Source: Eubacteriales bacterium
Lineage (GTDB): Bacteria; Bacillota; Clostridia; Oscillospirales; CAG-272
Reading direction: 5' to 3'
Assembly (NCBI GenBank): GCA_045613985.1
Contig: JAZLCA010000036.1
Span: 50,023 to 114,022, forward strand
Length of the DNA stretch: 64,000 bases
Made by a program: the position numbers and the translations under genes. The notes under the pieces are model-generated. The model had not been told where the DNA came from, made no database searches, and saw only the letters and a list, made by a program, of their open reading frames with translations. Positions 11,148 through 36,703 of this stretch are shown here, piece after piece. Positions within the stretch are counted from its first letter, which is position 1; the number at the start of each line of letters is the position of its first letter.

Positions 11148-11153
11148 TTTTAT

Positions 11154-12509
11154 TTAAGGGGCAAACAGAACAACGTCCGTGCGCTCCCCTGTCGTGTTGG
11201 TAACGGTGATGGCATCGCCAGGCTTTGCTGTGAAAATGCAAGCGCCTCCAGCAATTTCTGCCTCAACACCGTTCACCTTCACCGTCAGGCCTGCGCTGCA
11301 ATCGATGCTGACCGTCTTTTCCTCGCCCTTCCAGTTCAAGTGAAGGGTAGCCGAGCCCTCAATACGCATGGCGGTACTGCCGTATACGGGCAGCGCATCA
11401 TTCTCAGCACCGCTATGCAGTGCAAGCGAAAACTCTACCGCGTTGACGGTAGCCGCGCCCTTCGAGGAAACGGTAATGGAAACTTCATCTCCAGCATTGA
11501 CGGGCAGATACAGACAAGCGCCGCCGTCGGTGTAGGAAGTTACCACGTAAGTAGTAGTGTTGTACATCATGATGTTATTATCCGGCGTTGTGCAGGTCAG
11601 CACCAGATAGCCGGAAGCCGTCGCAGTATAGGTGTAGTAAACCGCACCCTCTGCAGGCACCTCAGCCGTCAGCGTCTTGTCTGCTTCGGCTCGATAGGGA
11701 TTCCCCTGCGTACCGGGCAGAGATTCAAAGCAAACGGTAAAGGTGCATTCGGATGTCCCGGTGTTCGTCACAGTAAAGGGTATGGTGGAGTTGGTATCTG
11801 CCGCGCCCTTGACCAAAACGCGAATGACACCGTCCTCAGGCAAATATTCCTCGCCCTCATAAACGACCTTAGTCGTTGCGCCCTCAACCACGAGATAGCG
11901 GGTGCTGGTACCGCGGGCAAAACAATGATAGGTCACGCCTGCCGAAGCAGTCAGAGTCACCCGCTCGTCCCCCACGTAATAGGGCTTTTCTTCCGAGCCG
12001 TCGGGATTGTTATCCACAGCTTTGAATTCACGCATCGGTGCCTCCGCCGAAAATTCGACTTCTGCCATATTGCCCTCAACGTACCAGCCCTCCTCCAGGC
12101 CCTCGAACCAAACGGTATAGAGACCGGGAAGAAGCTCGGCATTAACGCATCCTGCATCGTCCGTCTTTGCGACCAACGCGCTCTCGCCCTCGAACAACAG
12201 CGTCAGCGAAATACCAGCCATGGGATTTCCTTTTTCATCTTTGAGGGTAATGACCATATTTATGGGATCCACGCAAATTTCGCCGCAGATCTCGCAATGG
12301 TTATCGCCGTCGGTATCGATATGATCTTCGCAAACGTCGACAGGCACTTCTGCACCGCAAACGTCGCATTTTCCATCCTCGTCAGCGTCGGTGTGTGTCG
12401 CACAGGGCTGCTGCGGCACCTCATTCTTGCAAGCCGCCAATACAACCATCGCGCACACCATCAGACAGCACAACAGCACCGCCCATACTTTGCTCATATT
12501 CTTTTTCAT
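11154..12509 (-). CDS. Secreted lipoprotein with an N-terminal Asp/Cys mini-repeat region
   Basis: Signal peptide plus lipobox VVLAAC. CATHTDADEDGKCDVCG and CEDHIDTDGDNHCEICG units. Downstream beta-rich modules resemble the type-B modules of the neighbouring giant gene. Start ATG 12509 after GAGGAA. Confidence 0.7.
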   Translation of the reverse strand: MKKNMSKVWAVLLCCLMVCAMVVLAACKNEVPQQPCATHTDADEDGKCDVCGAEVPVDVCEDHIDTDGDNHCEICGEICVDPINMVITLKDEKGNPMAGISLTLLFEGESALVAKTDDAGCVNAELLPGLYTVWFEGLEEGWYVEGNMAEVEFSAEAPMREFKAVDNNPDGSEEKPYYVGDERVTLTASAGVTYHCFARGTSTRYLVVEGATTKVVYEGEEYLPEDGVIRVLVKGAADTNSTIPFTVTNTGTSECTFTVCFESLPGTQGNPYRAEADKTLTAEVPAEGAVYYTYTATASGYLVLTCTTPDNNIMMYNTTTYVVTSYTDGGACLYLPVNAGDEVSITVSSKGAATVNAVEFSLALHSGAENDALPVYGSTAMRIEGSATLHLNWKGEEKTVSIDCSAGLTVKVNGVEAEIAGGACIFTAKPGDAITVTNTTGERTDVVLFAP

Positions 12510-12544
12510 AAGATTCCTCACATAATACATAGCATTAACGATTC

Positions 12545-12573
12545 ATTCTATCACAAAATCCACTGTTTTGCAA
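12545..12573 (-). promoter_or_regulatory. Sigma-A promoter of the 451-aa lipoprotein gene
   Basis: Minus strand TTGCAA (12568-12573), 17 nt, TAGAAT (12545-12550). Confidence 0.6.
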
Positions 12574-12625
12574 CCCTTTATACAAAAAAGCCATGACGCC
12601 ACCGCAGTTTTTTCGCAAGCAAAAG

Positions 12626-12655
12626 AACGAACCGCATCTTTTGATGCGGTTCGTT
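12626..12655 (-). terminator. Intrinsic terminator of the 1759-aa gene
   Basis: AACGAACCGCATC / GATGCGGTTCGTT 13-bp stem, TTTT loop, CTTTTGC after the stem on the minus strand. Confidence 0.7.
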
Positions 12656-12690
12656 GAAAAATATCAGTTGACGTGAGAATCGGTCAGCCT

Positions 12691-15600: not shown

Positions 15601-17970
15601 GGTCAGGCCGTTAACCAGCGAGCCGGTATAGGTATAGGTGCCGGCATAGGAACCGTTGTTGTAATCCTCAACGGTCAGAATGCCGTTCTGGAAGGTCAGC
15701 ACGTACAGACCATCCATCAGGAAGTTGACCTGATACTTTCCGTCCAGCTCTTCGCCAACAACGGGAGGCGCCGCCTCGGTATGAATTATCGTGAAGGTAG
15801 GTACGTTATTCCAGCTGAACGTACCCAGAGCCGCGTCCAGATAAAACGGAATTTCAGCGATGCCGTCGACATTGGAGTAAGTCAGTTTGCCGGCCTCGTA
15901 CAGATAATCGTACGTACCGCTCCAACCCGTATTGTTGTTATCAACAACCGTGACCGTGCCGGCCGTTCCGTCTGCAGCAATCGGATGGAAGGTGAACGAA
16001 TACGCCGTCATGCCAAAGAACTTCACCTCATACTTGCCCGAAAGAACGTCCTTGACGTCATACGTGGGAAGTTCTGCTGCCGTCAGTGTCAGCGTGCAGG
16101 AAATTTCGGGGTTTTTCATGGAGGTAAGGGTAATGACCCACGTACCCGTTGCCGTAGCGGACAGAGTGTAGGTGCCGTCGCCGTTGTCGATCAGCGTTGC
16201 ATTCTGAGCGCCGGTCTCCAGCGTTGCGGTAAAGGAACCATCCGCATAAGTATTAACGCCGGCGCTGAAGGTAATATTTGCCGCACCGGTTTCGTCTACG
16301 TAAACAGTATGCTCGCTCTTATCGGCAAACACGCCGTTTTCGCTAACGGTAGGATAGATCTCGGTAACTGCAGGAGGCGTGACGATAACCGTCAGCGTCT
16401 TGGTGGTCATCGCGGTCTTGATGGTCAGAGTATACGTACCCTGGGGGCATCCAAACAACATAATCGAGCCGCCCCAATAGGAGGATTCTCCGCCTTCATA
16501 TTCAACGATAACGTTATCCAGATCTATAATGGCCGTATCAGGCAGAATATTTACAAAGCACAGTGAGAAAGGTTTACCCGCCTCAAAGGTGATCTCATCT
16601 CCCAAAGGAGTGGTAGCCAGGATGGGCTTCGTGCCGATCCACTCACCGTTTTCATCGAATACGTCCTCCGAACCCAGTTCCTCATACAATTCATAGTCCG
16701 TCACGAAAATATTTTCGGGCGTGTACTTGGATTCCAGGTCGCGCTTACCGCTCGTCTGTTCCACAACATAGTTGTATACCGTGTTGGGAACCAGATTGGT
16801 GGTATGATAAGTCGTGCCGTTCTCGTCAATCTCGCAGTTGTACTTGGCAGAGGAGACGTAAACGTGGCGATAGGTATAGTCCTCACCCAGCGCAAAACCA
16901 ACCTGTACCTGATACAGCGTAGAAACCGTATCGTCGTAAAGAATCGGCTGAGAGAAGGAGAATACGTAATAGGGCGTACCCTCATGGCTGACCATATACT
17001 CCTTGAAGTCGCCATTGGGGTTTGCCTTAGCCATTTCGTACAGACCGGTGATCAGGGCCGTGACACCGTAGAAAGTATCTTCCGCATCGTCATCGTCGCC
17101 AAACACCTGTGCAAAAGCATAACCGTCGATCAGTGCGCTGGCAGGCTCATACGCCTTACCCACCGAACCGTCGGCATATTCCTCGATACCGAACATACTG
17201 CCCTTGTACAGCATATACCAGTAAGTCGTAGTTTCCGCATAGGTCAAATTATTCTCAATGATATTGGAGCTGTTCGCGCCCAGCGCGTAATCGATCGCAA
17301 GCTGATACTTCATCCAGGTATCATACTCGAAATCAACGTGACCGCCGTTGACGAGATTATCGTAATACTCGCCCATATCCACGGCCTTATCCACCGTAAC
17401 CGAGCCCTTGATGTAGCCGCAAACCACGCAACGATCCATATCATCGTAATCGTGCGCCTCCTCGTCCTCGATCACGCTGTGACCGCAAGATGCAGCATGC
17501 CAGTGGTTGTCTGCATCCATTGCCCACGCATCGGTGATGTAGGTGTGCTCGTGGCCACCGTCGTATTCGCAAATATCGCAAGCGCCATCGTTATCGGCAT
17601 CCTTGTGCGCAGCCTGGTCCTTTACGTCAATCGAGCATCCACAGGTAACTGCATACCAGTGATTGTTCTCGTCCGAGGACCATTCCGCAGCATAGGTATG
17701 GGTATGATGAAAGTCATATCCGCAAACGTCGCAAATGCTGTTCTTATCCGCATCGGCGTGTGCATTGAGGGAAGCCTTGGCGTTGGCGCAGTCCGCGCCG
17801 TCCTTACAGCTTGCCGCGTGCCAGTGATTGGTCTCGTCCATCGACCAGACGTCACCGTAGGTGTGCTGATGTGTATTCGCGGCAGGAGTGTCGCTTCCCT
17901 TGTCACAAGCAACGAACATAAGCGTTACCAGCAACAAAGCACACAAAAGCAAAGAAATGTGTCTCTTCAT
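12691..17970 (-). CDS. Giant (1759 aa) modular surface lipoprotein
   Basis: Signal peptide plus lipobox LMFVAC and GGAGG RBS. Three His/Cys units near the N-terminus. Four ~95-aa type-A modules (GKY.V.F...LYVLTF.NG.LT.ED.NNG.Y.GTY). Seven ~100-aa type-B modules (LVLGENS..V.V......F.APWAGT.TIS...GE...). Confidence 0.8.
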   Translation of the reverse strand: MKRHISLLLCALLLVTLMFVACDKGSDTPAANTHQHTYGDVWSMDETNHWHAASCKDGADCANAKASLNAHADADKNSICDVCGYDFHHTHTYAAEWSSDENNHWYAVTCGCSIDVKDQAAHKDADNDGACDICEYDGGHEHTYITDAWAMDADNHWHAASCGHSVIEDEEAHDYDDMDRCVVCGYIKGSVTVDKAVDMGEYYDNLVNGGHVDFEYDTWMKYQLAIDYALGANSSNIIENNLTYAETTTYWYMLYKGSMFGIEEYADGSVGKAYEPASALIDGYAFAQVFGDDDDAEDTFYGVTALITGLYEMAKANPNGDFKEYMVSHEGTPYYVFSFSQPILYDDTVSTLYQVQVGFALGEDYTYRHVYVSSAKYNCEIDENGTTYHTTNLVPNTVYNYVVEQTSGKRDLESKYTPENIFVTDYELYEELGSEDVFDENGEWIGTKPILATTPLGDEITFEAGKPFSLCFVNILPDTAIIDLDNVIVEYEGGESSYWGGSIMLFGCPQGTYTLTIKTAMTTKTLTVIVTPPAVTEIYPTVSENGVFADKSEHTVYVDETGAANITFSAGVNTYADGSFTATLETGAQNATLIDNGDGTYTLSATATGTWVITLTSMKNPEISCTLTLTAAELPTYDVKDVLSGKYEVKFFGMTAYSFTFHPIAADGTAGTVTVVDNNNTGWSGTYDYLYEAGKLTYSNVDGIAEIPFYLDAALGTFSWNNVPTFTIIHTEAAPPVVGEELDGKYQVNFLMDGLYVLTFQNGILTVEDYNNGSYAGTYTYTGSLVNGLTVYNEDGSESDMIIALGLDGSPTFQCAGLMMPQTLIKVEDEDNDEGNDEAFNGKYSVDFLMPGLYVLTFENGVLTIEDHNNGAYSGTYSYEGTPTSGMTIYHADGTVSDILISVGLDGSFTFQCSALMMAQPLNKVEDGGDVGGDTQDALVLGNNSIVVDDPWNGVVIGFTATEAGTYVLSADHGENNAFVLIETMYGSEMLDLPYTFELGAGETMMFIILTGDFTSDTVDLVVTKEGGSGDEPADNLLVLGENSVHVQVVNFWPEWTEMVFTAPWAGTFTISPAAGESNADIYDFDGNWIENMPYTFTLAEGESIIFYFASLDMMIDEDYIDVVISEGGSQGGDEPADNLLVLGENSIHVQVVNFWPEWTEMVFTAPWAGTFTISPAAGESNADIYDFNGNWIENMPYTFTLAEGESIIFYFASLDAMIDEDYIDVVISEGGSQGGDEPADNLLVLGENSIHVQVLNFWPEWTEMVFTAPWAGTFTISPAAGESNADIYDFNGNWIENMPYTFTLAEGESIIFYFASLDMMIDEDYIDVVISEGGDEPGEQPGEGTDEPELPADATLVLGENSVYVTVTNFFQNQTKATFTAPWAGTYTISWADGETNGDLFDAWGNWIENMPYTFELEEGESIIVYVQSADFFITEDYIDLVIAEGEGEVVPEDPGVMLLPGENTVYVTVTEYFQDMIKAFFTAPVSGTYTISWADGETNGWLHNANLEWIETLPYTFTLEAGESIVFYFQSIDYMITEDYINVVISGGSTEPEQPVEPDEDDTLWLDGEYRVDFSGTTYYKLIFRNDTMTLVDNNAQLYSGTYTYQIDADGAFTFYKDGVVTTDVLIQVAPDGSYTFQCPSLKIPMALVKYEEPVDDGTETVTKFSIGDNAIKVTNGWKGVSIPFTAPSTGTYILAPAEGEENAAIIIEDGYVTELIVLNAPYVFELEEGQTKVFIVVTQGKNADTINLILTAETAS
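13971..14897 (-). repeat. Three near-identical in-frame tandem repeats of 309 bp (103 aa) inside the giant gene
   Basis: CCTCGGAAATGACTACGTCGATGTAATCCTC recurs at 13971, 14280 and 14589. Only scattered substitutions between copies. Diverged copies flank on both sides. Confidence 0.9.
17413..17871 (-). repeat. Three protein-level His/Cys mini-domain repeats (~50 aa each)
   Basis: HQHTYGDVWSMDETNHWHAASC...AHADADKNSICDVCGY; HTHTYAAEWSSDENNHWYAVTC...AHKDADNDGACDICEY; HEHTYITDAWAMDADNHWHAASC...AHDYDDMDRCVVCGY. Confidence 0.8.
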
Positions 17971-18069
17971 AAGAAAGAGCCTCCTTTGGGAAAATTATTT
18001 CAAGTATTTTGAAATCAAATGTGGTGGGGAGCGGGATACCCTCCCGCCCGGGGCAACGGACAAAATCCG

Positions 18070-19656
18070 TTATTTTTTAACATAATAACCGCAAGCAAAC
18101 AGCCATTGGTCTTCTTCGGTGGCATCGACCTTGACCGTAGGATTGACCTCAACCCAACCCTGTCCGTCGGCAAAATAGCGGTGAGAAACGCTGAAGCCCT
18201 GCAAAAAGTGACGCACCTCTTCGGTCACGGCGTAAACGCCGTCCGAGTTAGCAAAAGATGCATATCCCAACAGTCGTTTGGGAATCTCTCCGCCGTTCGC
18301 CGCGATCTCGGCAACGATATCATCGGGCAATCGACGGCAATCCGCGTGACACTCCGTACAGGATTCACCGCACACGCCAATGCATTTGCCATCTTTAAGG
18401 CAAGGACATTCGGTGATACAGAAATACATTCCTGCATCTCCGGGCTGGTCAACCAGCAACGCAGGCAAGCCTTGAATAAACAGCTTGTGATTTTCCGTTC
18501 CGTAAATCGTCAAGGACTTATTACCGGGGTCTTCGATATGCGTAAAGGCCAGCTCGGCAAAGCGATGGGGCTGCGAGAGCTTGGCGTACAGAATCGGACC
18601 GTAGGTACCCGTTTCGGCATCGTAGACGTGGTAGTATCCGTCGCCGCCCTCTTCAAGAGGCCACAGCTTGAACATACTGCCATCGTATTCATAGCGTCCC
18701 TCGACCCCCTTGGTGGAGGTTTCAGCCCATTGGAACTTATATTCGCTTGGATCATACTCGGGTGTCTGCTTGAAATCCTCGGTGGGAATGACAATCTGAG
18801 CGGCACTGTGATCCAGAAAAAAGGATCCGTTGAGCTGGATGGCAAAATCGACGTAAATGGGATAAACACCGTTCTTGGAATCGGCGTGAACCGCAAAGGT
18901 AAATACCACCTGACCGCCCGTTGAGATCTGCTCGTCGGCAATCTCTACGATATGCTTGAAATTCTGTGTATAACCGGAGGAAATTCCGCCGTCGTTCAAG
19001 GTATACGAAAACGTCTTGTAAGCGATCGATCCCGTGTAAACATCGACCATGGGATTGTAGTTCCCCTCGGCCATGCTGACCCAAGACTCTACCGAGTAGG
19101 TACCGCTGGTCGTGGGTGCGTACTGGAAGTAGATCTTATGATCGGCATCCGTCAGCTCCACGCGATAAACACCCGTTTTGCTGATCTCGATGCAATCGTA
19201 AGGACCTGTTCCGTAACCCGAGGTACGGATGGGTTTGTAGATATCGATCACGACGTTTTTCTTATCGTTGGTAGCCACGTAGGCGTTGCAGTTGTACAAA
19301 TACCCTTCGGGCAGTCCCTTGAGCGTGACCTGATAGTCACCGTCAAGGCCGCTGACACGGGCAACACCGTCCTCCGAAAAATCAGCGGTGTAGAAGGAAA
19401 AGCCATCCGTCCACTGTGCCTTCATGTCATCCTTCTTTTTGGGGATGTAAGGTTGACCGTTATATCGGATAGACACCGTAAAGGCATCCGGGTCATCCAC
19501 AACATCTCCGGGGGTGCCGGGCTGCTGTGGACTGTCCTCGTGGCCGGGCTTATCGGTCGGAGCTCCGGGGCTATCGGGTGCCGGACGGTATTCACCGCAG
19601 GCCGTCGCCGAAAGCAACAACAGAACCGCCAACAAAAGCACAAAAACTTTTTTCAT
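18070..19656 (-). CDS. Lipoprotein, member of the window's DGYYH-module family
   Basis: MKKVFVLLLAVLLLLSATAC lipobox, GLPEGY beta-sandwich-like N-domain, GDGYYHVYDAETGTYGPILYAKL, Cys-cluster CITECPCLKDGKCIGVCGESCTECHADC. An alternative GTG start at 19704 overlaps the upstream stop (GTGA). Confidence 0.7.
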   Translation of the reverse strand: MKKVFVLLLAVLLLLSATACGEYRPAPDSPGAPTDKPGHEDSPQQPGTPGDVVDDPDAFTVSIRYNGQPYIPKKKDDMKAQWTDGFSFYTADFSEDGVARVSGLDGDYQVTLKGLPEGYLYNCNAYVATNDKKNVVIDIYKPIRTSGYGTGPYDCIEISKTGVYRVELTDADHKIYFQYAPTTSGTYSVESWVSMAEGNYNPMVDVYTGSIAYKTFSYTLNDGGISSGYTQNFKHIVEIADEQISTGGQVVFTFAVHADSKNGVYPIYVDFAIQLNGSFFLDHSAAQIVIPTEDFKQTPEYDPSEYKFQWAETSTKGVEGRYEYDGSMFKLWPLEEGGDGYYHVYDAETGTYGPILYAKLSQPHRFAELAFTHIEDPGNKSLTIYGTENHKLFIQGLPALLVDQPGDAGMYFCITECPCLKDGKCIGVCGESCTECHADCRRLPDDIVAEIAANGGEIPKRLLGYASFANSDGVYAVTEEVRHFLQGFSVSHRYFADGQGWVEVNPTVKVDATEEDQWLFACGYYVKK

Positions 19657-19700
19657 GTGTGTTGTAACCATTTCTTTCATTAGGTTGAATCGCATCCCGA

Positions 19701-22433
19701 TCACTTGGTTTTAGCAGAAGATGATTTAAACAGACCTCTGATATCGCTCCACTTGATCTTGCGGATGATAATATCCGCAACGTAAAGCGCAACCGCCGCG
19801 ATCATAAAGGGAATGGTAAAGGTCAAGCGATACGTATCCACGCGGGCCTTGGTCTCTGAAAGATCGGGAATCTGTCCCTCGCTGACCGTGCCGCGATGAC
19901 GGATGGCCGCGTGAAGCGCAGATGCATCAAAGTTGGCGAAGCTGTCATACTCGGGAGAATACGAAATGTGGAATTCCGAGGCGGACGTAAACGTACCCGA
20001 GGGTGCGCCGTACGTCACGCTGATATCGTAACGTCCCAGAAGGGGTGTCTCGAAGCGATAGAAGTAACGGGATGCGTCGAAGATCAACCGCTCGGTCACA
20101 CTCTTGCCATCGGGATGAGTGATGGTCACGTCCACCGTAGCATAAGGGTTCAAAATCGCGGGAATGATCTCAAGCGTGGAATAAATACCATCGTACTGAA
20201 CGTTGAGGGTATAGGGGTAATCCACCTTCTCTTCGGGAATATTGACGTCGAGCATATTGGCAAGCATTCTCTGCCCTGCCTCGCTCTGCCAGTTGGAGGC
20301 CCAATCTCCCGAAATGGCACCCGTGAAGGAGGTCACCTTGCCGTTGCCGTACTTCCAGTAGGCGTACAGCGGCACGTCGATCACGCTTCCGCTCGTCTTT
20401 TGGTACTCGACCGTCAGGACGGTGTAGGCGCTGATCTTGGCCTTGCTGTGAACGTAGCCCATGATCGAAGGCAGATAGGACACGCCCTGCATGACGTCGT
20501 CCTTGGGACGGGCGATCTTGACGGGAGTCTCACTCTCGATGATGGATTCGGTCACGTCATCTGCAATATCAGAGAAGACCAACTCCTCCAGTGCAGACTC
20601 ATTTTTGATGAAATAATACTCGCCTTTGCCTGCATTGGCAAGATTCTTGAGCATATTGATGCCCGCGGCCTCATTATTATAGGGATTCATCGTAGACAGA
20701 TAAATACCGTTGGCGTACATGTACTGAGCCACCTGAACGGGCGTCATCTCTCTGTCCTCGATCTTAACGATCTCGGCCGTGTAGTTCATACCGTCGCTGA
20801 TCAGCATCACCTGCTTCTCCGAGTGTTGCTGGTTGACGATATGATTGAGTGCCGCCGCAAGACCTCCGCCGATGGAGGTACCCTGACTGGGCTGAATGGC
20901 ATTGATCTTCTTGGCAATATCCTCGCGGTTGGCCGCCTTGGTTGTCGCCTGAATGATCTTGATATCTCCCGCAAAGGTGACGACAGCCACATCGTCCTCA
21001 TCGGAGAGCAGGTTGAGCAGATGGATGGCCGCTTGCTTGGCAACCGCCAAACGAGAAGCCGTAAACATACTGCGGGAGACGTCGATGACAATGGTAAACA
21101 GCTTAGGATCCTGGGCGCTGTTACCGAATTTTACGGGCAACATATTTTCCAGGCTTTCCAGCGTGCTGTCGGTTTTGTTCTGAATCTTGGTATCTCCGAT
21201 GGTAACAAAGCTCTTTCCATACTGCGATACCACCGTTTCCACACTTTCAATGAAGGCAGAAACGTTGTTGACCTCGCGCACGTCCATATTGGACAGGATG
21301 ATCTCATCGTAAAGGCAAAGCTCCTCAACACTGCAAGGAACGTTGCGAGGATCGGCCGAAACCGTCACGGTCGGATGATTCAAGAACAAGTTCTGTGCCT
21401 CTTTGAGCACACGATGATCGGAATGAACGAGCATCACGTCCACCGCCGCGCGGCCGCCGTACAGCTTTTCAATGGCGACGATGTCCTGCACACTCGAAGT
21501 CAAAAGCAGGGCGCGAAGCTCGGCACTGACCGTTTGAGTAAAGGAATAGCTGTTATTGTACGCCGACGTATCGGAGGGCACCGTGACACGGACCTCGTAG
21601 TCGAAGCGTCCCTCCGCGTCCGTTGGCAAATCAAAGTTGACGATATTGTATCCGCGGGTCAACTCAAGTGCACGATCAAGCAGCTTTTCACCGTTGCGGT
21701 ACAGCGAAACGACCGCTCGCTCGTCCATATTGGCTTGGATAAGGACGTCTGCTGTAGTCGCATGGCCGAGATACGTCGCGCGGATGTATTCCACGCCCGT
21801 CAGCTGCACTTCGTTTTCGCCGTCCTTGAGATTACTGTCAAGGTAGATGGCGTCAATGGCAATATCCTGCGCCACCAGCTGTTCTACGGCAGCAATCAAG
21901 GCGGAGGTATTCTCCCCCACCGTCTCCTTACCGTCGGTCAACAGCACCACGCGCTTGAGCATTCCTTCGCCAAACAGCGTGGAAGCATAAGACAACGCAG
22001 TCGCAATATCCGTGGCGGAATCGTCCACAAGACCGGCGGCCACCGCATCCTTGACGCTTTGGATCTCACCACCAAGCTCGGTCTGCAACACGTAGTTTTT
22101 ACCAAAGCAGATCACACCCACCTTGGAATTTTTGGGAAGCGAATCCCGGATTTGTGCGATATATTCATCCACCTCGTCCAGATTGCGATTGGCCGAATAG
22201 GAAACGTCCGCCACAATATAAACGTGGGTTTCCGTCATGACCGTCGTAATGACCGTGCCCGCGACGGCAAGCCCGATCAGCACCAGGATCACGATGTGAA
22301 TGATCAAAGAAGCAATCACACTCTTGCTCTTATTGTCCTTTCTTATGGCGATGAAGAAAGGAAGCAAAACTCCGATGGCCAGCGGAATGAGCAACAACAG
22401 CCACAAGGGATTATCGAAGCTGATATTTCTCAT
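19701..22433 (-). CDS. BatA-N-terminal-domain protein with two vWA domains and a C-terminal TM helix
   Basis: N-terminus MRNISFDNPLWLLLLIPLAIGVLLPFF (double-TM Bat-type). MIDAS motifs DVSYS and DVSRS. TDGKET / SDGMN. C-terminal TM FTIPFMIAAVALYVADIIIRKI. Confidence 0.8.
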   Translation of the reverse strand: MRNISFDNPLWLLLLIPLAIGVLLPFFIAIRKDNKSKSVIASLIIHIVILVLIGLAVAGTVITTVMTETHVYIVADVSYSANRNLDEVDEYIAQIRDSLPKNSKVGVICFGKNYVLQTELGGEIQSVKDAVAAGLVDDSATDIATALSYASTLFGEGMLKRVVLLTDGKETVGENTSALIAAVEQLVAQDIAIDAIYLDSNLKDGENEVQLTGVEYIRATYLGHATTADVLIQANMDERAVVSLYRNGEKLLDRALELTRGYNIVNFDLPTDAEGRFDYEVRVTVPSDTSAYNNSYSFTQTVSAELRALLLTSSVQDIVAIEKLYGGRAAVDVMLVHSDHRVLKEAQNLFLNHPTVTVSADPRNVPCSVEELCLYDEIILSNMDVREVNNVSAFIESVETVVSQYGKSFVTIGDTKIQNKTDSTLESLENMLPVKFGNSAQDPKLFTIVIDVSRSMFTASRLAVAKQAAIHLLNLLSDEDDVAVVTFAGDIKIIQATTKAANREDIAKKINAIQPSQGTSIGGGLAAALNHIVNQQHSEKQVMLISDGMNYTAEIVKIEDREMTPVQVAQYMYANGIYLSTMNPYNNEAAGINMLKNLANAGKGEYYFIKNESALEELVFSDIADDVTESIIESETPVKIARPKDDVMQGVSYLPSIMGYVHSKAKISAYTVLTVEYQKTSGSVIDVPLYAYWKYGNGKVTSFTGAISGDWASNWQSEAGQRMLANMLDVNIPEEKVDYPYTLNVQYDGIYSTLEIIPAILNPYATVDVTITHPDGKSVTERLIFDASRYFYRFETPLLGRYDISVTYGAPSGTFTSASEFHISYSPEYDSFANFDASALHAAIRHRGTVSEGQIPDLSETKARVDTYRLTFTIPFMIAAVALYVADIIIRKIKWSDIRGLFKSSSAKTK

Positions 22434-24258
22434 AGCAATACACCATCCAATCCGCCAGGAACAAGAGCGCCAAGCTAATAAACAAAATCATCAACGGATC
22501 ATACGTTCCGTCAAATCCGCCCTCGGTTGCTTCGCCCTGCAACCCAATGCTCGAAGCCGTCGGCGCGGGCTCGCGCTCAGCCTCCGGCAATGCGGAATAA
22601 AGATAAAATTGACTCGGGATCCCCGACACCGTAACGGTAATGGTGTACGTTCCGACCTCAGCCAAGGGGAACGTTGCCGTCGCCACGTCGGTGGCCAGAT
22701 AGGTTACCTTTCCCAAGGGGCTCTCTACGCGGATACTCTGGCAGTTGGCAATGACGTTAACCGCTGCCTCGTCTCCCGCATAATAGTTGACCTTTTCCAT
22801 CACGTCGGGGAACGAGAAGGTCATCAGGTTGTCCAGTATGACTATGAAATCCACCAGCATGGGCAGATTGGAATTATGCAGATCAAATGCGAAGACCACC
22901 TCGCGGTGTCCCGCTGCATTGGTACCCGCAAACACCAAGGGATTTCCCTTATAAGTGAACAGCGTGGTGAAATTGCGATACAGGCTGCACTTGACGTATT
23001 CGGAAATGTAAATTTCCTCTCCATCGACGTGAGCGATCAGCTTTTTGGCAACGCTGGAGGAAGACGTCGTCATCTCCAACAATTCGCCTCGGGCAAGGGT
23101 AACCTCACCCTGCACGCTGAATCCGGTATCGGGAACGCTTCCCTTGGGATCAAAAAACCATACCGCGCCATCCTCCGGTGCCTTGGCAGGCGTACAGCCT
23201 TCAAAAATATACAAGCCGTAACCGCGCACCGTTGAATTATAATCCTCTGGCGACATGACGGTGATTTTGGTCCGTCCGACCGCTCCCAGTGCCGTTTCCA
23301 GGAAGAAGGGGGTGTCCGATACCAACAGGATGCTGTACGAATCCTCGCTCTTAACGTTATAGATAACGTATTCATCGTCCAGTGCAAGTCCGTCCGACGT
23401 CCCTACGACCAAGCGCAAGGAGGAAAAGGTCTTGATGGTCGCCGTCATCTCAAACGGCACCTTTTCGCCCTTAACGGCAGCGACCTGCACGGTTGCGATG
23501 GGCGTTTCTCCACCATCGGCATAAGCCGATACCGTCAGAGCGGCATTGTCGTTGTAGGAAAGAATGCTTGCGTTCACACGCAGCTGTCCGCCCGCCAGAT
23601 CCCACAGCACGTCGGTCAAGGCGGTGTTTGTTTCCGCTTGTGCCACGTTGACAATTTGTAGATTGTTCACCGTCTGATACGCCGTATCGGTAACGAAGTA
23701 AACAAGCGATGCCGTATTTTCGGAAAAATACTGCTGTGCGCGGCCGATCGCATGCGAGACGTCCGTCTCTACGTAGCCGACCTCGGTCTCCGCCAACAGC
23801 TCGAGCGCCTGCTTCTTATCCGTCGTTTGCTCGAAGACGGTCGCGGTCGCGTCGCTGATGAGGATCAGCGAGAAGCGGCTGCCGTCGGTAGCGGAATCGA
23901 TCATATCCGCGATCTCATTTTTGGCGCGGTCGAAACGGCTGACTCCGTCCTGCTGCATATTCATACTGCCCGAGGCATCCAAAAGGAAGCAATATTCCTT
24001 GGCAGAGCCGGGAACGGTAATGATGGGACGGGCAATAATAAGCGAGATCGCCGTGACGGCCAGGATCTGCAACAGCAGGCTGATGATACCCGTCAAGGGG
24101 CTGGGACGGCGACGTCTTTTGAGAAACCTTTCGCTCAGCGTCCAAAGATAGGTGGAAGCGACCGTCTGTTCCGCATATTTACTTTTGATGATATAAATCA
24201 GGATCAAAATGGGAACACCAATGAGTCCCAAAAGACCTAACGGAAAAAGAAAATTCAC
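22411..24258 (-). CDS. BatA-like vWA-domain membrane protein
   Basis: GTG start overlapping the DUF58 stop (GTGA). N-terminus NFLFPLGLLGLIGVPILILIYIIK. MIDAS DASGS (CFLLDASGSMN). C-terminal TM. Confidence 0.8.
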   Translation of the reverse strand: MNFLFPLGLLGLIGVPILILIYIIKSKYAEQTVASTYLWTLSERFLKRRRRPSPLTGIISLLLQILAVTAISLIIARPIITVPGSAKEYCFLLDASGSMNMQQDGVSRFDRAKNEIADMIDSATDGSRFSLILISDATATVFEQTTDKKQALELLAETEVGYVETDVSHAIGRAQQYFSENTASLVYFVTDTAYQTVNNLQIVNVAQAETNTALTDVLWDLAGGQLRVNASILSYNDNAALTVSAYADGGETPIATVQVAAVKGEKVPFEMTATIKTFSSLRLVVGTSDGLALDDEYVIYNVKSEDSYSILLVSDTPFFLETALGAVGRTKITVMSPEDYNSTVRGYGLYIFEGCTPAKAPEDGAVWFFDPKGSVPDTGFSVQGEVTLARGELLEMTTSSSSVAKKLIAHVDGEEIYISEYVKCSLYRNFTTLFTYKGNPLVFAGTNAAGHREVVFAFDLHNSNLPMLVDFIVILDNLMTFSFPDVMEKVNYYAGDEAAVNVIANCQSIRVESPLGKVTYLATDVATATFPLAEVGTYTITVTVSGIPSQFYLYSALPEAEREPAPTASSIGLQGEATEGGFDGTYDPLMILFISLALLFLADWMVYCYEKYQLR

Positions 24259-25139
24259 TTCAATACTCCAATATTAACCAATTTTCCAAAGAAGATCTCA
24301 CCAACGCTGTCTTCCGCGCCCACCAGCAGATAATCCGCACCGCGAGCAGCGCAATAATTACGGATGCGATCCGTCGCATACTGCAAAGCCGCTTTGTAGG
24401 CCTTGACGATTTCCTTGTCGATATTTTTGCGGTAGGTTCGCGAAGCGTTTTCCGAGTCGAACAGATGCATTTTGCCGCGAATCTGGGGATTGAACTCCTC
24501 TCGCGTCAAAATCTGCAGGCAGAGAATGTCGCGTCGGCGGTCTGCCAGATAATCGATGGCATCCTCGTAGTTGTTGTCCGTCAAAAAATCCGAGATGATG
24601 ACCGAAAGTCCGTCACCACGGCCCACGCTCGAAGGGAGAATGGCTCGACTGATGTGACTATCGCCCTCAAAGGCAATTTCGTTCAGCTTGCCAATTTCAG
24701 ACAGGTAGGTTTCCTTGCCCACCATGCCTCGGATGATCTCCTTGACCTCGCCCTCGCAAATGGTATAGATCGAAACTCGATCCATCTCGCAGACAGAAAG
24801 ATAGGCGATCGTCGCCGCCAGGCGAATGGCCTGCTCGGCTTTTTTATTGTCTCCATATTCCATCGAACGGCTGGCGTCGATATAAATTCTCGTGTGCATC
24901 TGCCGCTCGTCGAAATACAGCTTTTCATACAGCTTATCGAAGCGAGCGTAGGCGTTCCAGTCGATCTTGGTAATGTCGTCGCCCGGCATATAATCGCGGT
25001 AGTCGGCAAATTCTGCGGAAGAACCAAAGTTTTTACTTTGGCGCAAGCCGCCAAACATTCCGCCCAGATTGTTTTTCAGGAGCGATTGCAGCGTTTCGAT
25101 CTGCTGCAACAGCTCCTCATTGATCACAAGATAGCCCAT
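24255..25139 (-). CDS. DUF58 domain protein
   Basis: DYRDYMPGDDITKIDWNAYARFDKLY signature. Sits between MoxR and vWA genes as in Bat-type operons. Confidence 0.85.
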   Translation of the reverse strand: MGYLVINEELLQQIETLQSLLKNNLGGMFGGLRQSKNFGSSAEFADYRDYMPGDDITKIDWNAYARFDKLYEKLYFDERQMHTRIYIDASRSMEYGDNKKAEQAIRLAATIAYLSVCEMDRVSIYTICEGEVKEIIRGMVGKETYLSEIGKLNEIAFEGDSHISRAILPSSVGRGDGLSVIISDFLTDNNYEDAIDYLADRRRDILCLQILTREEFNPQIRGKMHLFDSENASRTYRKNIDKEIVKAYKAALQYATDRIRNYCAARGADYLLVGAEDSVGEIFFGKLVNIGVLK

Positions 25140-25141
25140 GC

Positions 25142-26122
25142 TTATCTCTTGGTTGCCTTGATCAGAAGTCCAACCACGTCATCCACCGTGAGTTTATCGT
25201 TGAGTGCCGTGTAGTTGATCTTGATTCTGTGGCGAAGAACGGGAGCCGCCAGGGCGTTGATATCCTCGTAGGATACGTTATAGTTGCCGTTGATCAGCGC
25301 TCTGACCTTGGCGCAGGTGATCAGCGCCTGAGCTGCACGGGGAGACGCGCCGTACTTGATGTACTTTTTGGCTACGTCACTCGCGCCATCGATCTCTGGG
25401 TGCGTCCCTGAAACCAGACGGGCCGTATAATCCAGCACACCGTCAATGACGGGAACGGAAGCCGCCAGCGCTCTCATCTCCAGAATATCCTTGCCGTCAA
25501 CGACTGCCTCTGCCGTCTCGTCCATGGTGATCTGCGTCATCTTGACGATATCGATCAGCTCGTCGTTGCCGGGGAATTTCATGATCAGCTTGAACACGAA
25601 ACGGTCCATTTGAGCCTCGGGCAGAGGGTACGTACCATCCTGCTCGATGGGGTTTTCGGTTGCCAAAACGAAGAAAGGCTCGTCCAGCTTGTAAGTAGCG
25701 TTACCGATGGTCACCTTATGCTCCTGCATGACCTCCAGCATTGCCGATTGGGTTTTGGGGGTAGCGCGGTTGATCTCGTCTGCCAGCACCAGATTTGCAA
25801 AAATGGGGCCCTTGCGGAAGACGGTGTTGAGTTTTCCGTTTTCATCCTTTTCGATGATGTTGGTACCCGTAACGTCCGAGGGCATCAGGTCGGGGGTAAA
25901 CTGAATGCGGGAGAAAGGCAGGCTGAGTACCTTACCGAGCGAACGAACCAGACGCGTCTTACCGACACCGGGAACACCCTCCAGCAGTACGTTACCGCCG
26001 GCAATAATAGCAATAATAACGTTATCAATGATTTCGGCCTGACCTACGACGTCGCGGCGAAGCTCGCTCTTTATCTTAGCGACTTTCTCACTGAAAGCCT
26101 GTACTCTCTGTTTGTTTTCCAT
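25142..26122 (-). CDS. MoxR-family AAA+ ATPase
   Basis: Walker A GVPGVGKT, Walker B LADEINR, ATENPIEQDGTYPLPEAQMDRF. Confidence 0.9.
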   Translation of the reverse strand: MENKQRVQAFSEKVAKIKSELRRDVVGQAEIIDNVIIAIIAGGNVLLEGVPGVGKTRLVRSLGKVLSLPFSRIQFTPDLMPSDVTGTNIIEKDENGKLNTVFRKGPIFANLVLADEINRATPKTQSAMLEVMQEHKVTIGNATYKLDEPFFVLATENPIEQDGTYPLPEAQMDRFVFKLIMKFPGNDELIDIVKMTQITMDETAEAVVDGKDILEMRALAASVPVIDGVLDYTARLVSGTHPEIDGASDVAKKYIKYGASPRAAQALITCAKVRALINGNYNVSYEDINALAAPVLRHRIKINYTALNDKLTVDDVVGLLIKATKR

Positions 26123-26148
26123 GGTTATCTATCCCTTTCTCTCTTGTA

Positions 26149-27600
26149 TTAGTCGTTTTTGTCTTTGTAATACAGATCCGCAAAATACTTATCGATGAAC
26201 TCCTTTTGCTCATCCGTCAGCGGTCTTTCTTGCATTTCGGTCACCTTCTGACCGTTGTATTCGTCGATAACGTCGCCGTATTTGACGTGCGTCTCGTCCT
26301 TGGGGTAATAGATGGCATCGTCGCTGCCGTAAATGACCTCGCCATTGCCTTTACCGCCGCCGCCCAAGATCTCGTCCTCTTTTTCCTCGTACTCGTTATC
26401 CTCCGTCGAAGCTTCTTCGTCGTCGGAATACTTGAGCTCGTCCGGCAATTCATTCCAGCTGATATCGAAAATGCTCATCAGCCCATTCAGCGCATCATCC
26501 GTCGTTTTGCGGTTGATTCCCTGTTGATTCAAGGCTGCGCCGATCGACTCTGCCGCCGTTTCAAATACTCGGGTAAGAGCTGAGCTTGCCTCCTCGGTGG
26601 GTAATCCGTCTGCCGTCTGCGCAAAAGTCGCCAGCTGTGCTGAAAATTCAGCCAACGCCGCATACAGCGCATCCTCCACAGCGACGCTTGCCGTTCCGAT
26701 GGCGACGTCAATAGCGGTAGCAAACTGCTTGACGTCTGCGCCCAGTGTCTCCGTGACAAGGCCCGCCTTGAGCGCTTGGTATTTACTCTCAATGATAGGA
26801 TCCGCCGGCACGCCAATGGCATCCGCCAAGTCTTTGACCTTGGTGTTGCCTGCGCCTCGCATGGCGCGAACGATCGCAGTATAGCTGTTGATCCTGTTGG
26901 TGACCGCATCGATGCGAACCATCGCATCCATGACCGTGCGCTTCATGAGTGATTTGGAATGTACGTATTCCAGATCGACCAGCATCTTCTCCATAATCTC
27001 AACCACAGTTTCTCTGCCGGGCTGTTGCATCTCGGAAGCCTTGACCTCTTCGATCAGCACCCGAACAGCCGTTACGTGCCATTCGGTCAGCTCCCAGATA
27101 TCCTCTTCCCCGGGACCCTCTCCCACCGGTGCCGAGCTTTCGGTACGAACCGGAAGAATGATGGCCGCCGCTGCAATCGACAGGGCAATCACGGGCAATA
27201 CGAGCTGTACCCAAGCGCGGCGATCGCGCAGCTGCTTTTTGGGAGTAGAGGACAAGATACTCTCAGTATCCGAACGTTGCATTTGCAGCATTTCGCCGTC
27301 CTGTCCGCGGAACTCGACCATTGTCTGCACCTTTTCATTCATGTGCAGCCGCTCATCCAAACGCTTGGCAATACGCTTTTCCGTTGGATATTTAATCCAC
27401 AAGGACAACAGCGTTGCCACCAGTGCAACCGCGCCGCCTAAGACGACCGCCCAAACAAGTTGCGGCGTCATTGCCATAAGCTTTTGCACGACCACAAATG
27501 CGGCCGCCGCAAGCACGCCCAAAGCTATGCCAAACAAAACGAATTTTATAATCGTAGCAAGGCGGATTTTCTTTTTTATTTTTTCAAAATTCCGACTCAT
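26149..27600 (-). CDS. Hypothetical membrane protein heading the MoxR operon
   Basis: Two N-terminal TM helices plus one internal TM. Helical Ala-rich exodomain and acidic C-terminus. Start ATG 27600 with GAAAGGAAAG RBS (the track start 27663 has no RBS). Confidence 0.65.
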   Translation of the reverse strand: MSRNFEKIKKKIRLATIIKFVLFGIALGVLAAAAFVVVQKLMAMTPQLVWAVVLGGAVALVATLLSLWIKYPTEKRIAKRLDERLHMNEKVQTMVEFRGQDGEMLQMQRSDTESILSSTPKKQLRDRRAWVQLVLPVIALSIAAAAIILPVRTESSAPVGEGPGEEDIWELTEWHVTAVRVLIEEVKASEMQQPGRETVVEIMEKMLVDLEYVHSKSLMKRTVMDAMVRIDAVTNRINSYTAIVRAMRGAGNTKVKDLADAIGVPADPIIESKYQALKAGLVTETLGADVKQFATAIDVAIGTASVAVEDALYAALAEFSAQLATFAQTADGLPTEEASSALTRVFETAAESIGAALNQQGINRKTTDDALNGLMSIFDISWNELPDELKYSDDEEASTEDNEYEEKEDEILGGGGKGNGEVIYGSDDAIYYPKDETHVKYGDVIDEYNGQKVTEMQERPLTDEQKEFIDKYFADLYYKDKND

Positions 27601-27681
27601 GAAAACTTTCCTTTCAACCGTTTCCGGCCATTCGATCAAGTGCCAAAAAACACTCTTCCACATTAAAAAATAGTTATATTA

Positions 27682-27710
27682 AGTATAACACTTTTGGCGC
27701 TTATTGTCAA
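27682..27710 (-). promoter_or_regulatory. Sigma-A promoter of the MoxR/vWA operon
   Basis: Minus strand TTGACA (27705-27710), 17 nt, TATACT (27682-27687). Confidence 0.65.
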
Positions 27711-27794
27711 GCGTGATCACAGTATTTTCACATAGAAATTCATATTTCCATCATAATTATAAACGCGCGCGAGCGAGAGAAGCAAAAAAGAAAA

Positions 27795-27823
27795 GAGGCC
27801 CGGCGGAAGCACCGCCGGGTCTC
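27795..27823 (-). terminator. Intrinsic terminator ending the protease/Opp operon
   Basis: GC-rich stem CCCGGCGG / CCGCCGGG with extensions. TTTTCTTTTTT on the minus strand. Also has a T-run on the plus strand. Confidence 0.8.
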
Positions 27824-27839
27824 TTTTATTGCGTGGTTA

Positions 27840-28097
27840 TCACGTCATCAAAAGGCGCATCAAGAGGAAGGCCACCGTGATAATACCGAGGGCGACCAAC
27901 ATGGGAACGAACATCATACGAACCGCATTCCAGTAGGTCTGGAAGGGCGTTTGACGCGACGAAATGACCGGCTTGGTCCTCTCTTTTTTCTTGCGCGCGG
28001 AGAACATACCGCCGCTCGTTCCCGACATATCGGCGATCGTGCGCCCATCGTCGATATAAATGACCTTTTCCTTTTTCTTTTTATCCTTTTTACTCAT
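27840..28097 (-). CDS. Small Lys-rich protein with a C-terminal TM helix
   Basis: 85 aa, GAGG RBS 9 nt upstream, TM MMFVPMLVALGIITVAFLLM. Last gene before the terminator. Confidence 0.5.
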   Translation of the reverse strand: MSKKDKKKKEKVIYIDDGRTIADMSGTSGGMFSARKKKERTKPVISSRQTPFQTYWNAVRMMFVPMLVALGIITVAFLLMRLLMT

Positions 28098-28127
28098 GAC
28101 AACAACCTCTTCTTTGGATGGATAGCC

Positions 28128-29246
28128 TCAAACGGTTCCCTGTTCCTCCAGCACGTGGCAGGCAGCAAAGTGTCCCTTTTCGTACTCCTTGTAGGTGGGC
28201 GGCACATGACGGCAGATCTCCTTGGCGTAGGGACAGCGAGTATGGAAACGGCAGCCCTTGGGAGGATTGGCCGGCGAGGGAATGTCACCCCTCAGCACGA
28301 TGCGGTTCATCTTGACGTCGGGATTGGGATTGGGAATGGCCGAGAACAGTGCCTGCGTATACGGATGCAGGGGACGGGCAAAAATATCCTTTTTGTCGCC
28401 AAACTCGACCATCGAGCCAAGATACATGACGCCAACCTTGTCCGAAATAAACTTAACGACAGACAGATCGTGCGAAATGAACAGATACGTCAGACCCATC
28501 GACTGCTGAAGATTCTTGAGCAGGTTGATGATCTGCGCCTGAATGGAAACGTCCAGCGCCGATACCGGCTCGTCGCAAACAACCAATCGAGGATTGACCG
28601 TCAGCGCGCGGGCAATGCAAATTCTCTGACGCTGACCGCCCGAAAATTCGTGAGGGTATCTTTCATAGTAATAATCGCGCAAACCGCACTTTTCCATCAA
28701 ATCCAGTACGTAATCCTTGATCTCTTCCTTAGGCACGATGTTGTGTACCTGTACAGGCTCGGACAAAATACCGCCGACCGTGCTTCTGGGGGGCAAGGAG
28801 GAATACGGATCCTGGAAGATAATCTGCATCTTTTTGCGGATGTCACGCATCTGCGCAGATTTCAGATCGGTAATATCCTGACCGTCAAAAATAATCTGAC
28901 CGCCGTTGGAGGGATACAATTTAAGAATGGTACGTCCCATGGTAGTCTTGCCGCAGCCCGACTCACCGACGATACCAAGCGTTTCGCCCGGCATCAGCTT
29001 AAAGGATACGTCGTCAACCGCGATCAGCTCCTGCAACACCTTGCCGGTGATGGATTTCTTGACGGGGAAGCATTTGCGCAGGTGGCGAACCTCCAGGAGT
29101 GCCTCGGGATCAAAGGGCTGTTTGAGATCTTGCTCGATCTGCGCCTTGCGCTGTGCGGCAAACTTCTCCTGCTCTGCGGCATCATCATACGCGTTCGTGG
29201 GAGCGTCGACGACAGCTTCGGTATTCAATTGTTTCTCGTCAGCCAT
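28128..29246 (-). CDS. oppF: Oligopeptide/dipeptide ABC transporter ATP-binding protein (OppF-like)
   Basis: Walker A GESGCGKT, signature FSGGQRQR, C-terminal oligopeptide-type extension (PPKGCRFHTRCPYA). ATG 29246 overlaps the oppD stop. Confidence 0.9.
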   Translation of the reverse strand: MADEKQLNTEAVVDAPTNAYDDAAEQEKFAAQRKAQIEQDLKQPFDPEALLEVRHLRKCFPVKKSITGKVLQELIAVDDVSFKLMPGETLGIVGESGCGKTTMGRTILKLYPSNGGQIIFDGQDITDLKSAQMRDIRKKMQIIFQDPYSSLPPRSTVGGILSEPVQVHNIVPKEEIKDYVLDLMEKCGLRDYYYERYPHEFSGGQRQRICIARALTVNPRLVVCDEPVSALDVSIQAQIINLLKNLQQSMGLTYLFISHDLSVVKFISDKVGVMYLGSMVEFGDKKDIFARPLHPYTQALFSAIPNPNPDVKMNRIVLRGDIPSPANPPKGCRFHTRCPYAKEICRHVPPTYKEYEKGHFAACHVLEEQGTV

Positions 29247-36656: not shown

Positions 36657-36703
36657 AAATATCCGGCGTCTTGTAATTCGCTTTTTTGACGGTCGGGCAA
36701 GAA

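Follow-up and report, generated by a model that had tools for sequence, protein, structure and literature searches.

A conserved MoxR–DUF58–vWA operon with fixed lipoprotein partners in uncultured gut Clostridia, a predicted monoderm relative of the Bat systems

Operons that combine a MoxR ATPase, a DUF58 protein and vWA proteins (Bat-type operons) are very widespread. To our knowledge, the clients and mechanism of these systems have stayed obscure since their description in 1999, and the mutant phenotypes are inconsistent across phyla. Here we describe such an operon in a 64,000-nt stretch of DNA from a bacterium of the Clostridia (the window, to which all coordinates refer unless a locus is named). 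Judged by its gene content, the operon is best read as a monoderm variant of the MoxR(MRP)–DUF58–BatA/BatB systems, in which a head gene in front of moxR, a double-vWA protein and fixed lipoprotein partners are new. We found no description of a head–MoxR–DUF58–vWA–lipoprotein arrangement in the literature. The operon genes all lie on the minus strand, with the following features in the order of transcription:

27799–27819, minus strand, intrinsic terminator with an 8-bp all-GC stem and a T run, closing the upstream oligopeptide-transporter (Opp)/small-protein unit
27682–27710, minus strand, sigma-70-type promoter TTGACA-17-TATACT with a TG extension, 11 of 12 consensus matches
26149–27600, minus strand, head, 483 aa, with the ribosome-binding site (RBS) AGGAAAG ahead of the ATG at 27600
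25142–26122, minus strand, MoxR AAA+ ATPase, 326 aa, cytoplasmic
24255–25139, minus strand, DUF58 protein, 294 aa, cytoplasmic
22411–24258, minus strand, vWA615, BatA-type vWA membrane protein, 615 aa
19701–22433, minus strand, vWA910, double-vWA membrane protein, 910 aa
18070–19656, minus strand, lipo528, lipoprotein, 528 aa
12691–17970, minus strand, lipo1759, the XL lipoprotein, 1759 aa
13966–14885, no strand given, 309-bp × 3.0 tandem repeat inside the lipo1759 gene, 103-aa modules (TRF score 1728, 96% matches)
12626–12655, minus strand, intrinsic terminator with a 13-bp stem and T-rich tail, probable end of the transcription unit
11154–12530, minus strand, lipo458, associated lipoprotein with a lipobox and a Cys/Asp-rich N-terminus, by sequence reading

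The closest described systems are the Bat operons (BatI of Bacteroides fragilis, bb0170–bb0176 of Borrelia, and batABD of Leptospira), in which an MRP-type MoxR and a DUF58 protein are likewise followed by a BatA-type and a second vWA membrane protein, with the vWA domains facing the extracytoplasmic side. The operon described here differs in lacking the TPR/SH3 proteins BatC and BatE as well as BatD, in having a 483-aa gene with three transmembrane (TM) segments before moxR and two fixed downstream lipoprotein genes, and in a second vWA protein of 910 aa that carries two vWA domains and a weak GATase1-like region. None of the eight proteins encoded between 11154 and 27663 gave a Pfam or NCBIfam match to TPR, SH3 or BatD, the marks of BatC, BatE and BatD. 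This bears out an earlier reading of the stretch (the first-pass annotation), which had recognized a Bat-like MoxR–DUF58–vWA module without TPR or BatD genes. Because BatC, BatD, and BatE are absent, the locus was not filed as a Bat operon; and as the host is monoderm, the complex would lie on the cell-surface side of a single membrane.

MoxR–vWA pairs are well established as chaperones and co-chaperones in the maturation of complexes and the insertion of metal cofactors (PMC3893208, PMC7159879). CoxD/E, NorQ/D, RavA–ViaA, and the methanol dehydrogenase MoxR resemble our locus in joining an AAA+ MoxR to a vWA co-chaperone with a metal ion-dependent adhesion site (MIDAS), and have dedicated clients (PMC3893208, PMC7159879). 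Their clients and vWA partners are, however, cytoplasmic or at the inner membrane face, whereas three of the four MIDAS domains of the operon are predicted to be outside the membrane. RL3499 of Rhizobium leguminosarum is another MRP-subfamily MoxR encoded in an operon and has an envelope phenotype, RL3499–RL3502 being needed for membrane integrity and morphology (PMC3893208). Lipoprotein partners are not described there, and the head protein of our locus stays below the DUF4175 threshold. The Rhizobium operon presumably also encodes a DUF58 and a DUF4175 protein, along with a membrane protein of the two_anch/GATase1-like type; the last two would mirror the weak DUF4175-like N-terminus of head and the weak GATase1-like region of vWA910. 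The PFNA cluster of Bifidobacterium (pkb2-fn3-aaa-atp-duf58-tgm) is similarly a Gram-positive gut cluster with MoxR, DUF58 and a large surface protein. The cluster is actinobacterial, however, MoxR and DUF58 are joined there by a Ser/Thr kinase, an FN3 protein and a transglutaminase, and it is not known to have a BatA-type vWA membrane protein, a head gene or a lipo528 family member.

Conservation of the gene order was surveyed with an alignment of 29 lipo528 relatives, which was scanned against one genome per species (185,579 species) and gave hits in 232 species; the best 80 loci were retrieved and inspected by tblastn with the window proteins. vWA910 directly precedes lipo528 in 79/79 loci with any upstream DNA, and the full order head–MoxR–DUF58–vWA615–vWA910–lipo528 is found in all 69 species loci with sufficient upstream sequence, down to 37% identity in lipo528 and 21% in head. 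The arrangement is beyond chance, because it recurs in every testable species locus. In the 61 scorable species, the median distance from the stop of vWA910 to the start of the lipoprotein gene is 1 nt, and 4-nt (ATGA) overlaps are common. In 46 of 47 scorable loci, the gene after lipo528 encodes a lipoprotein of 514–2053 aa in which an HxHT[FY]..W..D...HW[HY]..C motif directly follows the lipobox. A lipo458 homologue lies one to three genes downstream in many loci, and the genes flanking the conserved block vary from clade to clade. Three more distant operons (L081, L082, and L084; head at about 25%–27% identity) keep the same order, including a lipo528 family member (E-values of 6e-81 to 1e-165 with the hidden Markov model) and an XL lipoprotein. 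In L081, an 84-aa gene with a weak DUF3592 match (11964–12218 of that locus) is inserted between head and moxR, so the head–moxR junction is not invariant. The samples from which the homologues stem are all gut samples.

The co-occurrence check set beforehand, whether the lipo528 family is associated with MoxR/vWA operons in other genomes, was thus answered in favour of the association (79/79 and 69/69 loci). This makes lipo528 a true member of the operon in many species, coupled to it translationally, and the whole a conserved operon of at least 69 uncultured species of gut Clostridia, as far as genome sequences tell. It could still be argued that the lipoprotein genes are mere neighbours of a generic MoxR–vWA housekeeping module: the gap before the XL gene reaches up to 1175 nt in several species and may hold a promoter of its own, and lipo458 lies behind a terminator with its own promoter-like site. 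We consider this very improbable in view of the 79/79 adjacency of vWA910 and lipo528, the 1-nt median gap and the frequent 4-nt overlaps, which are kept while the flanks change by clade. For lipo528 itself, a chance neighbourhood was rejected on the same 79 loci and median gap.

The terminator at 27819–27799 is the upstream boundary of the operon in the window, and just after it follows the promoter at 27710–27682, the top-scoring site in 17.4 kb. The genes are tightly packed: 2 nt separate the moxR stop from the DUF58 start, the DUF58/vWA615 junction is a GTGA overlap that contains the GTG start of vWA615, and vWA615 and vWA910 overlap by 23 nt (both overlaps read directly). Lipo1759 begins 99 nt after lipo528 with a good RBS (AAAGGAGG), and no terminator- or promoter-like site was found on the coding strand of this gap. 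Since there is none, the transcription unit most likely comprises seven genes over about 15 kb, driven by one promoter and ending at the terminator at 12655–12626. A weak promoter-like site at 12573–12545, downstream of this terminator and before lipo458, probably gives lipo458 a weak promoter of its own. An Rfam search of 10800–28300 found no riboswitch or leader RNA in the 5′ untranslated region of the operon, its sole above-threshold match belonging to the next unit. The first-pass annotation had placed a six-gene operon behind a single promoter at 27682–27710. The six genes, their order and their strand were recovered by open reading frame (ORF) and Pfam analysis, and the promoter proved to be the best-scoring site in the region. 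The GTGA overlap at the vWA615 start was also read correctly, but the extent of the unit has to be revised, as it probably holds a seventh gene, lipo1759.

Upstream of the operon, the window encodes a small Lys-rich protein (27840–28097, minus strand) of a type with 75–85 aa and one C-terminal TM segment. Its gene ends at the terminator at 27819–27799 and therefore belongs to the upstream unit. The same kind of protein sits between the Opp ATPase genes and the head operon in L002, L004, and L008, and between the Opp ATPase genes and the redox module described below in L082 (4008–4235). The minus-strand genes are shadowed by antisense ORFs of up to 2436 aa (12673–16566, 19896–22478, 36686–43996 and others, all plus strand). 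These have no family matches and are codon-composition artefacts, some of which the greedy ORF caller chose in homologous loci.

The ATPase is a clear MoxR, with AAA_3 at 3.5e-61 (205.3 bits, gathering score 27) and AAA_lid_2 at 1.7e-16 (60.2 bits) in Pfam; PDB 2r44 is its nearest solved structure (1.8e-73). Its Walker A (GVPGVGKT, 49–56) and Walker B (LVLADE, 111–116) motifs are invariant in 49/49 homologues, and its expected partners, DUF58 and two vWA genes, lie directly downstream. The DUF58 protein matches PF01882 at 1.2e-28 (100.2 bits, gathering score 23.4) over profile positions 1–211 of 216 and has a vWA-like motif, DASRS, at residue 88, whose DxSxS pattern is kept in at least 55 of 56 homologues. 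Neither protein has a convincing TM segment by hydropathy, and both are predicted to be cytoplasmic. The ATPase also gave two weak matches, to the bpMoxR family of Pfam (5.6e-15, 55 bits) and to DolB of PADLOC (2.1e-5), which would fit a MoxR–vWA ternary system for NTP-dependent conflict or defence against phages. AAA_3 is far stronger than bpMoxR (205 vs. 55 bits), however, and Pfam detected no VMAP, iSTAND, FtsH, beta-propeller or effector domain. PADLOC gave two weak matches, both to the ATPase, and none to the other seven proteins. The membrane-anchored, outward-facing architecture, and an operon that looks like a stable core feature of many species, also speak against a conflict system, which we regard as improbable in the extreme. 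The defence-system assignment was rejected for want of third-component or effector domains, the PADLOC matches of the ATPase being weak.

vWA615 is, as first annotated, a BatA-type protein: its N-terminus matches BatA (PF07584 at 2e-9, 38.2 bits, gathering score 25.9; TIGR02226 at 24.5 bits, cut-off 23.05), and this double-TM aerotolerance regulator domain is followed by a vWA domain (VWA_2 at 8.5e-14, 52.5 bits). The two-TM hairpin, an external part made of the vWA domain and a domain of no known kind, and a C-terminal TM segment make up the protein, and the MIDAS residues D94, S96, and S98 (DASGS at 94) are conserved. vWA910 has two N-terminal TM segments, two external vWA domains (VWA_2 at 9.3e-28 in two stretches, Pfam) and a C-terminal TM segment with a basic tail. 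Both of its MIDAS motifs (DVSYS at 76 and DVSRS at 451) are conserved in at least 78 of 80 homologues. The first-pass annotation was thus right about the two intact vWA domains and the C-terminal TM segment, but not about a BatA N-terminal domain in vWA910, as the two-TM hairpin in its N-terminal 90 aa matches neither the BatA nor the two_anch profile even at E ≤ 1. A weak GATase1_like region (3.9e-4) has the same precomputed match in many homologues; the search with vWA910 returned relatives at 50% identity or more only. The closest solved structures of vWA910 are Bacteroides BatB (3ibs) and 4jdu, an aerotolerance-related membrane protein; its second vWA domain is nearest to 3ibs, a weak match (E = 3e-4) to a protein of unlike architecture given the two vWA domains and 910 aa here. 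Sortase-type anchoring of the vWA proteins was looked for by sequence reading, and no LPXTG precedes the C-terminal TM segments. Across the system, the four MIDAS DxSxS motifs are conserved in at least 51/54 to 79/80 homologues. Nearly every one of 49–80 homologues keeps these motifs as well as Walker A and B, and the system is under purifying selection.

The membrane topology was predicted from hydropathy and the positive-inside rule. In head, the N-terminus and a 63-aa loop between TM2 and TM3 are predicted to be cytoplasmic, with residues 152–483 outside. vWA615 and vWA910 would each have a short basic cytoplasmic loop between their N-terminal TM segments, a large external part, and a C-terminal TM segment ending in a basic tail. 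The predicted external face thus carries three MIDAS-bearing vWA domains, the all-alpha domain of head and two tethered lipoproteins, so that five of the seven products would come together outside the single membrane. This agrees with BB0173, a BatA-type protein whose vWFA domain was experimentally determined to face the periplasm (PMC5700661).

Head, annotated at first as a three-TM protein of no known family, retains this description after TM prediction (20–38, 51–69, and 133–151 by hydropathy) and profile searches, with no Pfam or NCBIfam model above cut-off. Besides the conserved TM2–TM3 loop, it has an ectodomain that is all-alpha, a low-complexity stretch of acidic character and a conserved motif at the C-terminus. 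Conservation is highest in the core of the cytoplasmic loop (72–116, with invariant D82, T93, and Q108), with the C-terminal 70 residues next. Its AlphaFold2 (AF2) model (pLDDT 79.6) is all-alpha and matched no PDB fold at E < 0.2 in Foldseek; searches with the head and lipo528 profiles against PDB sequences gave nothing below E = 0.05. The head family comprises 2898 clusters at 50% identity (E ≤ 1e-3). Two assignments were considered for it. DUF4175/TIGR02302 was rejected, as the match reaches 16.9 bits against a gathering score of 27.3, covers the N-terminal 75 residues only and has no NCBIfam counterpart; three of 96 family members match DUF4175 at E ≤ 0.05, and a remote homology may nonetheless exist. 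LPG_synthase_TM is matched by 43/96 members, all below the gathering score and in the TM segments only, and was treated as compositional. Together with lipo528, head appears to represent at least two large, uncurated protein families.

That lipo528 is a lipoprotein, as had been annotated, is confirmed by its lipobox (LSATAC), whose Cys is conserved in 71/72 homologues. The annotation had also considered a GTG start overlapping the preceding stop. This GTG at 19704 does overlap the TGA, but it adds 16 residues that close relatives lack. The ATG at 19656, 44 nt past the preceding stop, is where the signal peptide with its lipobox (MKKVFVLLLAVLLLLSATAC) opens, and since close relatives do not have the extension, lipo528 most likely starts at this ATG. 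The profile search that the annotation had called for placed lipo528 in no curated family, and lipo1759 and lipo458 (lipoboxes MFVAC and VLAAC) likewise match no Pfam or NCBIfam model above threshold. The AF2 model of lipo528 (pLDDT 82) has three parts: an N-terminal beta-sandwich (59–140), a jelly roll at about 156–275, and a C-terminal alpha/beta domain without a Foldseek match. The jelly roll resembles the C-terminal domain of Clostridium perfringens enterotoxin (C-CPE), the collagen-binding domain (CBD)/PPC domain of ColG and rhamnogalacturonan lyase accessory domains (Foldseek, 2.5e-5 to 1e-3), with template-modelling scores of 0.45–0.68 normalized to the target and 0.14–0.23 normalized to the query over about 130–280 residues. 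Despite these PPC/CBD-like matches, the segment has no Pfam match even at E ≤ 1. Eight cysteines (C413, C417, C419, C429, C433, C436, C440, and C522) are each conserved in at least 71 of 72 homologues. The N-terminus of lipo1759 consists of three HxHTY..W..D...HW..C/DxDxDGxCDxC modules, followed by repeated beta-sandwich modules, and the 309-bp tandem repeat suggests the recent expansion of a surface-exposed repeat.

These folds raise the question of an adhesion or substrate-capture apparatus, in which the vWA domains and lipoproteins would bind host glycoproteins, extracellular matrix or plant polymers, with the XL lipoprotein as the specificity subunit and MoxR/DUF58 only assembling or activating it. 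Besides the likeness of lipo528 to claudin-binding C-CPE, the ColG collagen-binding domain and rhamnogalacturonan lyase accessory domains, the XL protein is very variable in length (514–2053 aa) and sequence and has the recent 309-bp × 3 repeat, and the source samples are all gut. A vWA protein of the Borrelia Bat-like cluster, BB0172, binds integrin alpha3beta1 (PMC5700661), and in the PFNA cluster, MoxR and DUF58 are joined to a surface FN3 adhesin. The query-normalized scores of lipo528 are low (0.14–0.23), however, and cover only about 130–280 residues; no protein of the operon has a carbohydrate-binding or adhesin match in Pfam, and neither the invariant eight-Cys cluster nor the recurrent joining to a thiol-redox module is explained. 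We consider this reading unlikely.

The redox module lies 17.5 kb from the operon in the window, where it is accompanied by two genes first taken for lipo528 paralogs:

44272–45213, plus strand, TM313, 313-aa TM protein
45218–46756, plus strand, NapH-Trx, one ORF in which a NapH-like polyferredoxin is fused to a thioredoxin (WCGGC)
47363–48940, minus strand, par547, 547 aa, remote lipo528 paralog
49032–51917, minus strand, par961, 961-aa lipoprotein with an AhpC/TSA thioredoxin-fold domain

NapH-Trx matches Fer4_5 at 9e-20 and AhpC-TSA/Thioredoxin in Pfam; what had been annotated as a NapH–thioredoxin pair is a single fused ORF. Of the two lipo528 paralogs proposed beside it, par547 is a true but remote one (hhalign 97.8%, E = 1e-12, 364 columns) without the Cys-rich insert, whereas par961 has only the first beta-sandwich in common with lipo528 (hhalign). 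TM313 directly precedes NapH-Trx in most of 70 metagenome loci (L086–L153), often with an adjacent AhpC/TSA-fold lipoprotein gene. By analogy to DsbD/CcdA, TM313, NapH-Trx and the AhpC/TSA-fold lipoprotein appear to form a conserved, undescribed trans-membrane thiol-reducing triad.

A functional link between the two loci had been suggested as well, and in a minority of lineages they do adjoin. In L082/L083, the Opp transporter, the small TM protein, par961-like, TM313-like, NapH-Trx and head genes follow each other on one strand. In L122 (10004–17481), NapH-Trx, a 481-aa lipoprotein, an 855-aa lipoprotein and head do so with gaps of 11, 11, and 1 nt, so that the redox module and the MoxR operon form one array in this lineage. 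In L123, NapH-Trx immediately precedes head in the same orientation, and in L061 the TM313/NapH-Trx pair is divergent from head. A par961-like gene lies upstream of head in L011 and L070, as it does in L122 and L082/L083. Most loci with enough flanking DNA show no such adjacency; the gene neighbourhoods give some support to a NapH-Trx/operon link that is recurrent in a minority of lineages.

The same neighbourhood could point to a redox or aerotolerance system of the envelope, as Bat was originally understood, which would sense or repair oxidative damage and in which the Cys-rich lipoproteins would be redox-active themselves rather than clients. The Bat-like core, the eight invariant cysteines of lipo528 and the NapH-Trx and AhpC/TSA-fold lipoprotein genes adjoining the operon in several lineages are in its favour, as is the partial rescue of the B. 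fragilis bat phenotype by reducing agents (PMC3557215). Yet the module is non-adjacent in most loci, Pfam finds no thioredoxin-like or peroxiredoxin domain in the seven core genes, and deletion of the Leptospira bat genes gave no oxidative-stress phenotype (PMC3557215), which leaves this a doubtful account of the operon.

The reading that we prefer, and to which we give about an even chance, is that the operon encodes a membrane scaffold, powered by ATP, for the assembly or maturation of surface lipoproteins rich in Cys and His, much as the first-pass annotation had suggested for the adjacent metal-motif proteins. A MoxR hexamer, with DUF58 as a vWA-like adaptor, would engage short conserved cytoplasmic elements of the membrane proteins, namely the 63-aa TM2–TM3 loop of head, the loops of the BatA hairpins and the basic C-terminal tails, and ATP hydrolysis would power the assembly of the external vWA scaffold or its cycling between conformations. 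With its MIDAS sites this scaffold would capture two very acidic lipoproteins rich in Cys and His, lipo528 and the variable XL protein, and hold them while they fold, acquire metal, or join a surface complex, and the thiol-reducing module (NapH-Trx and the AhpC/TSA-fold lipoprotein) would keep the client cysteines reduced. This is consistent with the cytoplasmic loop being the most conserved part of head, and with the binding-type beta-sandwiches and eight invariant cysteines of lipo528. It also fits the predicted topology, the conserved gene neighbours, the chaperone role of MoxR–vWA pairs elsewhere and the contiguity of the redox module with head in some lineages, as well as the proposal of Tang et al. 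that Bat proteins act on the redox state of periplasmic proteins, repairing them or keeping them reduced (as summarized in PMC3557215).

Several points weigh against such a scaffold. That the lipoproteins are clients of the vWA domains we infer from co-localization and synteny only, every homologue found comes from a metagenome-assembled genome or a metagenome, and lipo528, whose C-terminal domain is unmatched, need not be a client and could instead be an enzyme or part of the structure. The redox module is the immediate upstream neighbour in 3/57 loci of the genome set; among metagenome loci with 5 kb or more of flanking DNA, it adjoins the operon in about 2 of about 14. We know of no mechanism by which a cytoplasmic MoxR ATPase acts across a membrane. 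The Leptospira mutants without an oxidative-stress phenotype count here too (PMC3557215).

A narrower version of the scaffold, put forward tentatively and in our view improbable, is that of a clade-wide envelope machine in which a cytoplasmic MoxR/DUF58 motor, acting via the three membrane proteins, loads metal into, or controls the thiol state of, the Cys/His-rich lipoproteins, with reducing power supplied through the NapH-Trx conduit. If true, it would provide the first concrete clients for any Bat-type system and a testable mechanism for the idea, dating from 1999, that Bat proteins look after the redox state of proteins outside the cytoplasm. More generally, the clostridial variant offers fixed extracytoplasmic partners, a 528-aa lipoprotein with eight invariant cysteines and a variable giant His/Cys lipoprotein, and in several lineages a trans-membrane thiol-reducing module physically joined to the operon. 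This turns the idea of a chaperone-like complex into specific, testable protein–protein and redox hypotheses, and adds a conserved His/Cys N-terminal module, in abundant uncultured Clostridia of the animal gut.

Two other features of the window were recorded. Downstream of the operon, a ZMP/ZTP (pfl-motif) riboswitch (10897–10976, minus strand; 58.9 bits, gathering score 39) lies behind a promoter-like TTGACA-17-TATACT site (11009–10981) and precedes a 743-aa ORF (8646–10877) with a pyruvate-formate-lyase-like N-terminus, which is followed by a radical-SAM activase-like ORF (7922–8722), both ORFs assigned by sequence reading only. On the other side, 36704–44023 (minus strand) encodes a 2439-aa secreted protein with an S8 subtilase domain with a PA insert, Fn3-like and Big_2 domains, and six blocks of BspA-type leucine-rich repeats.

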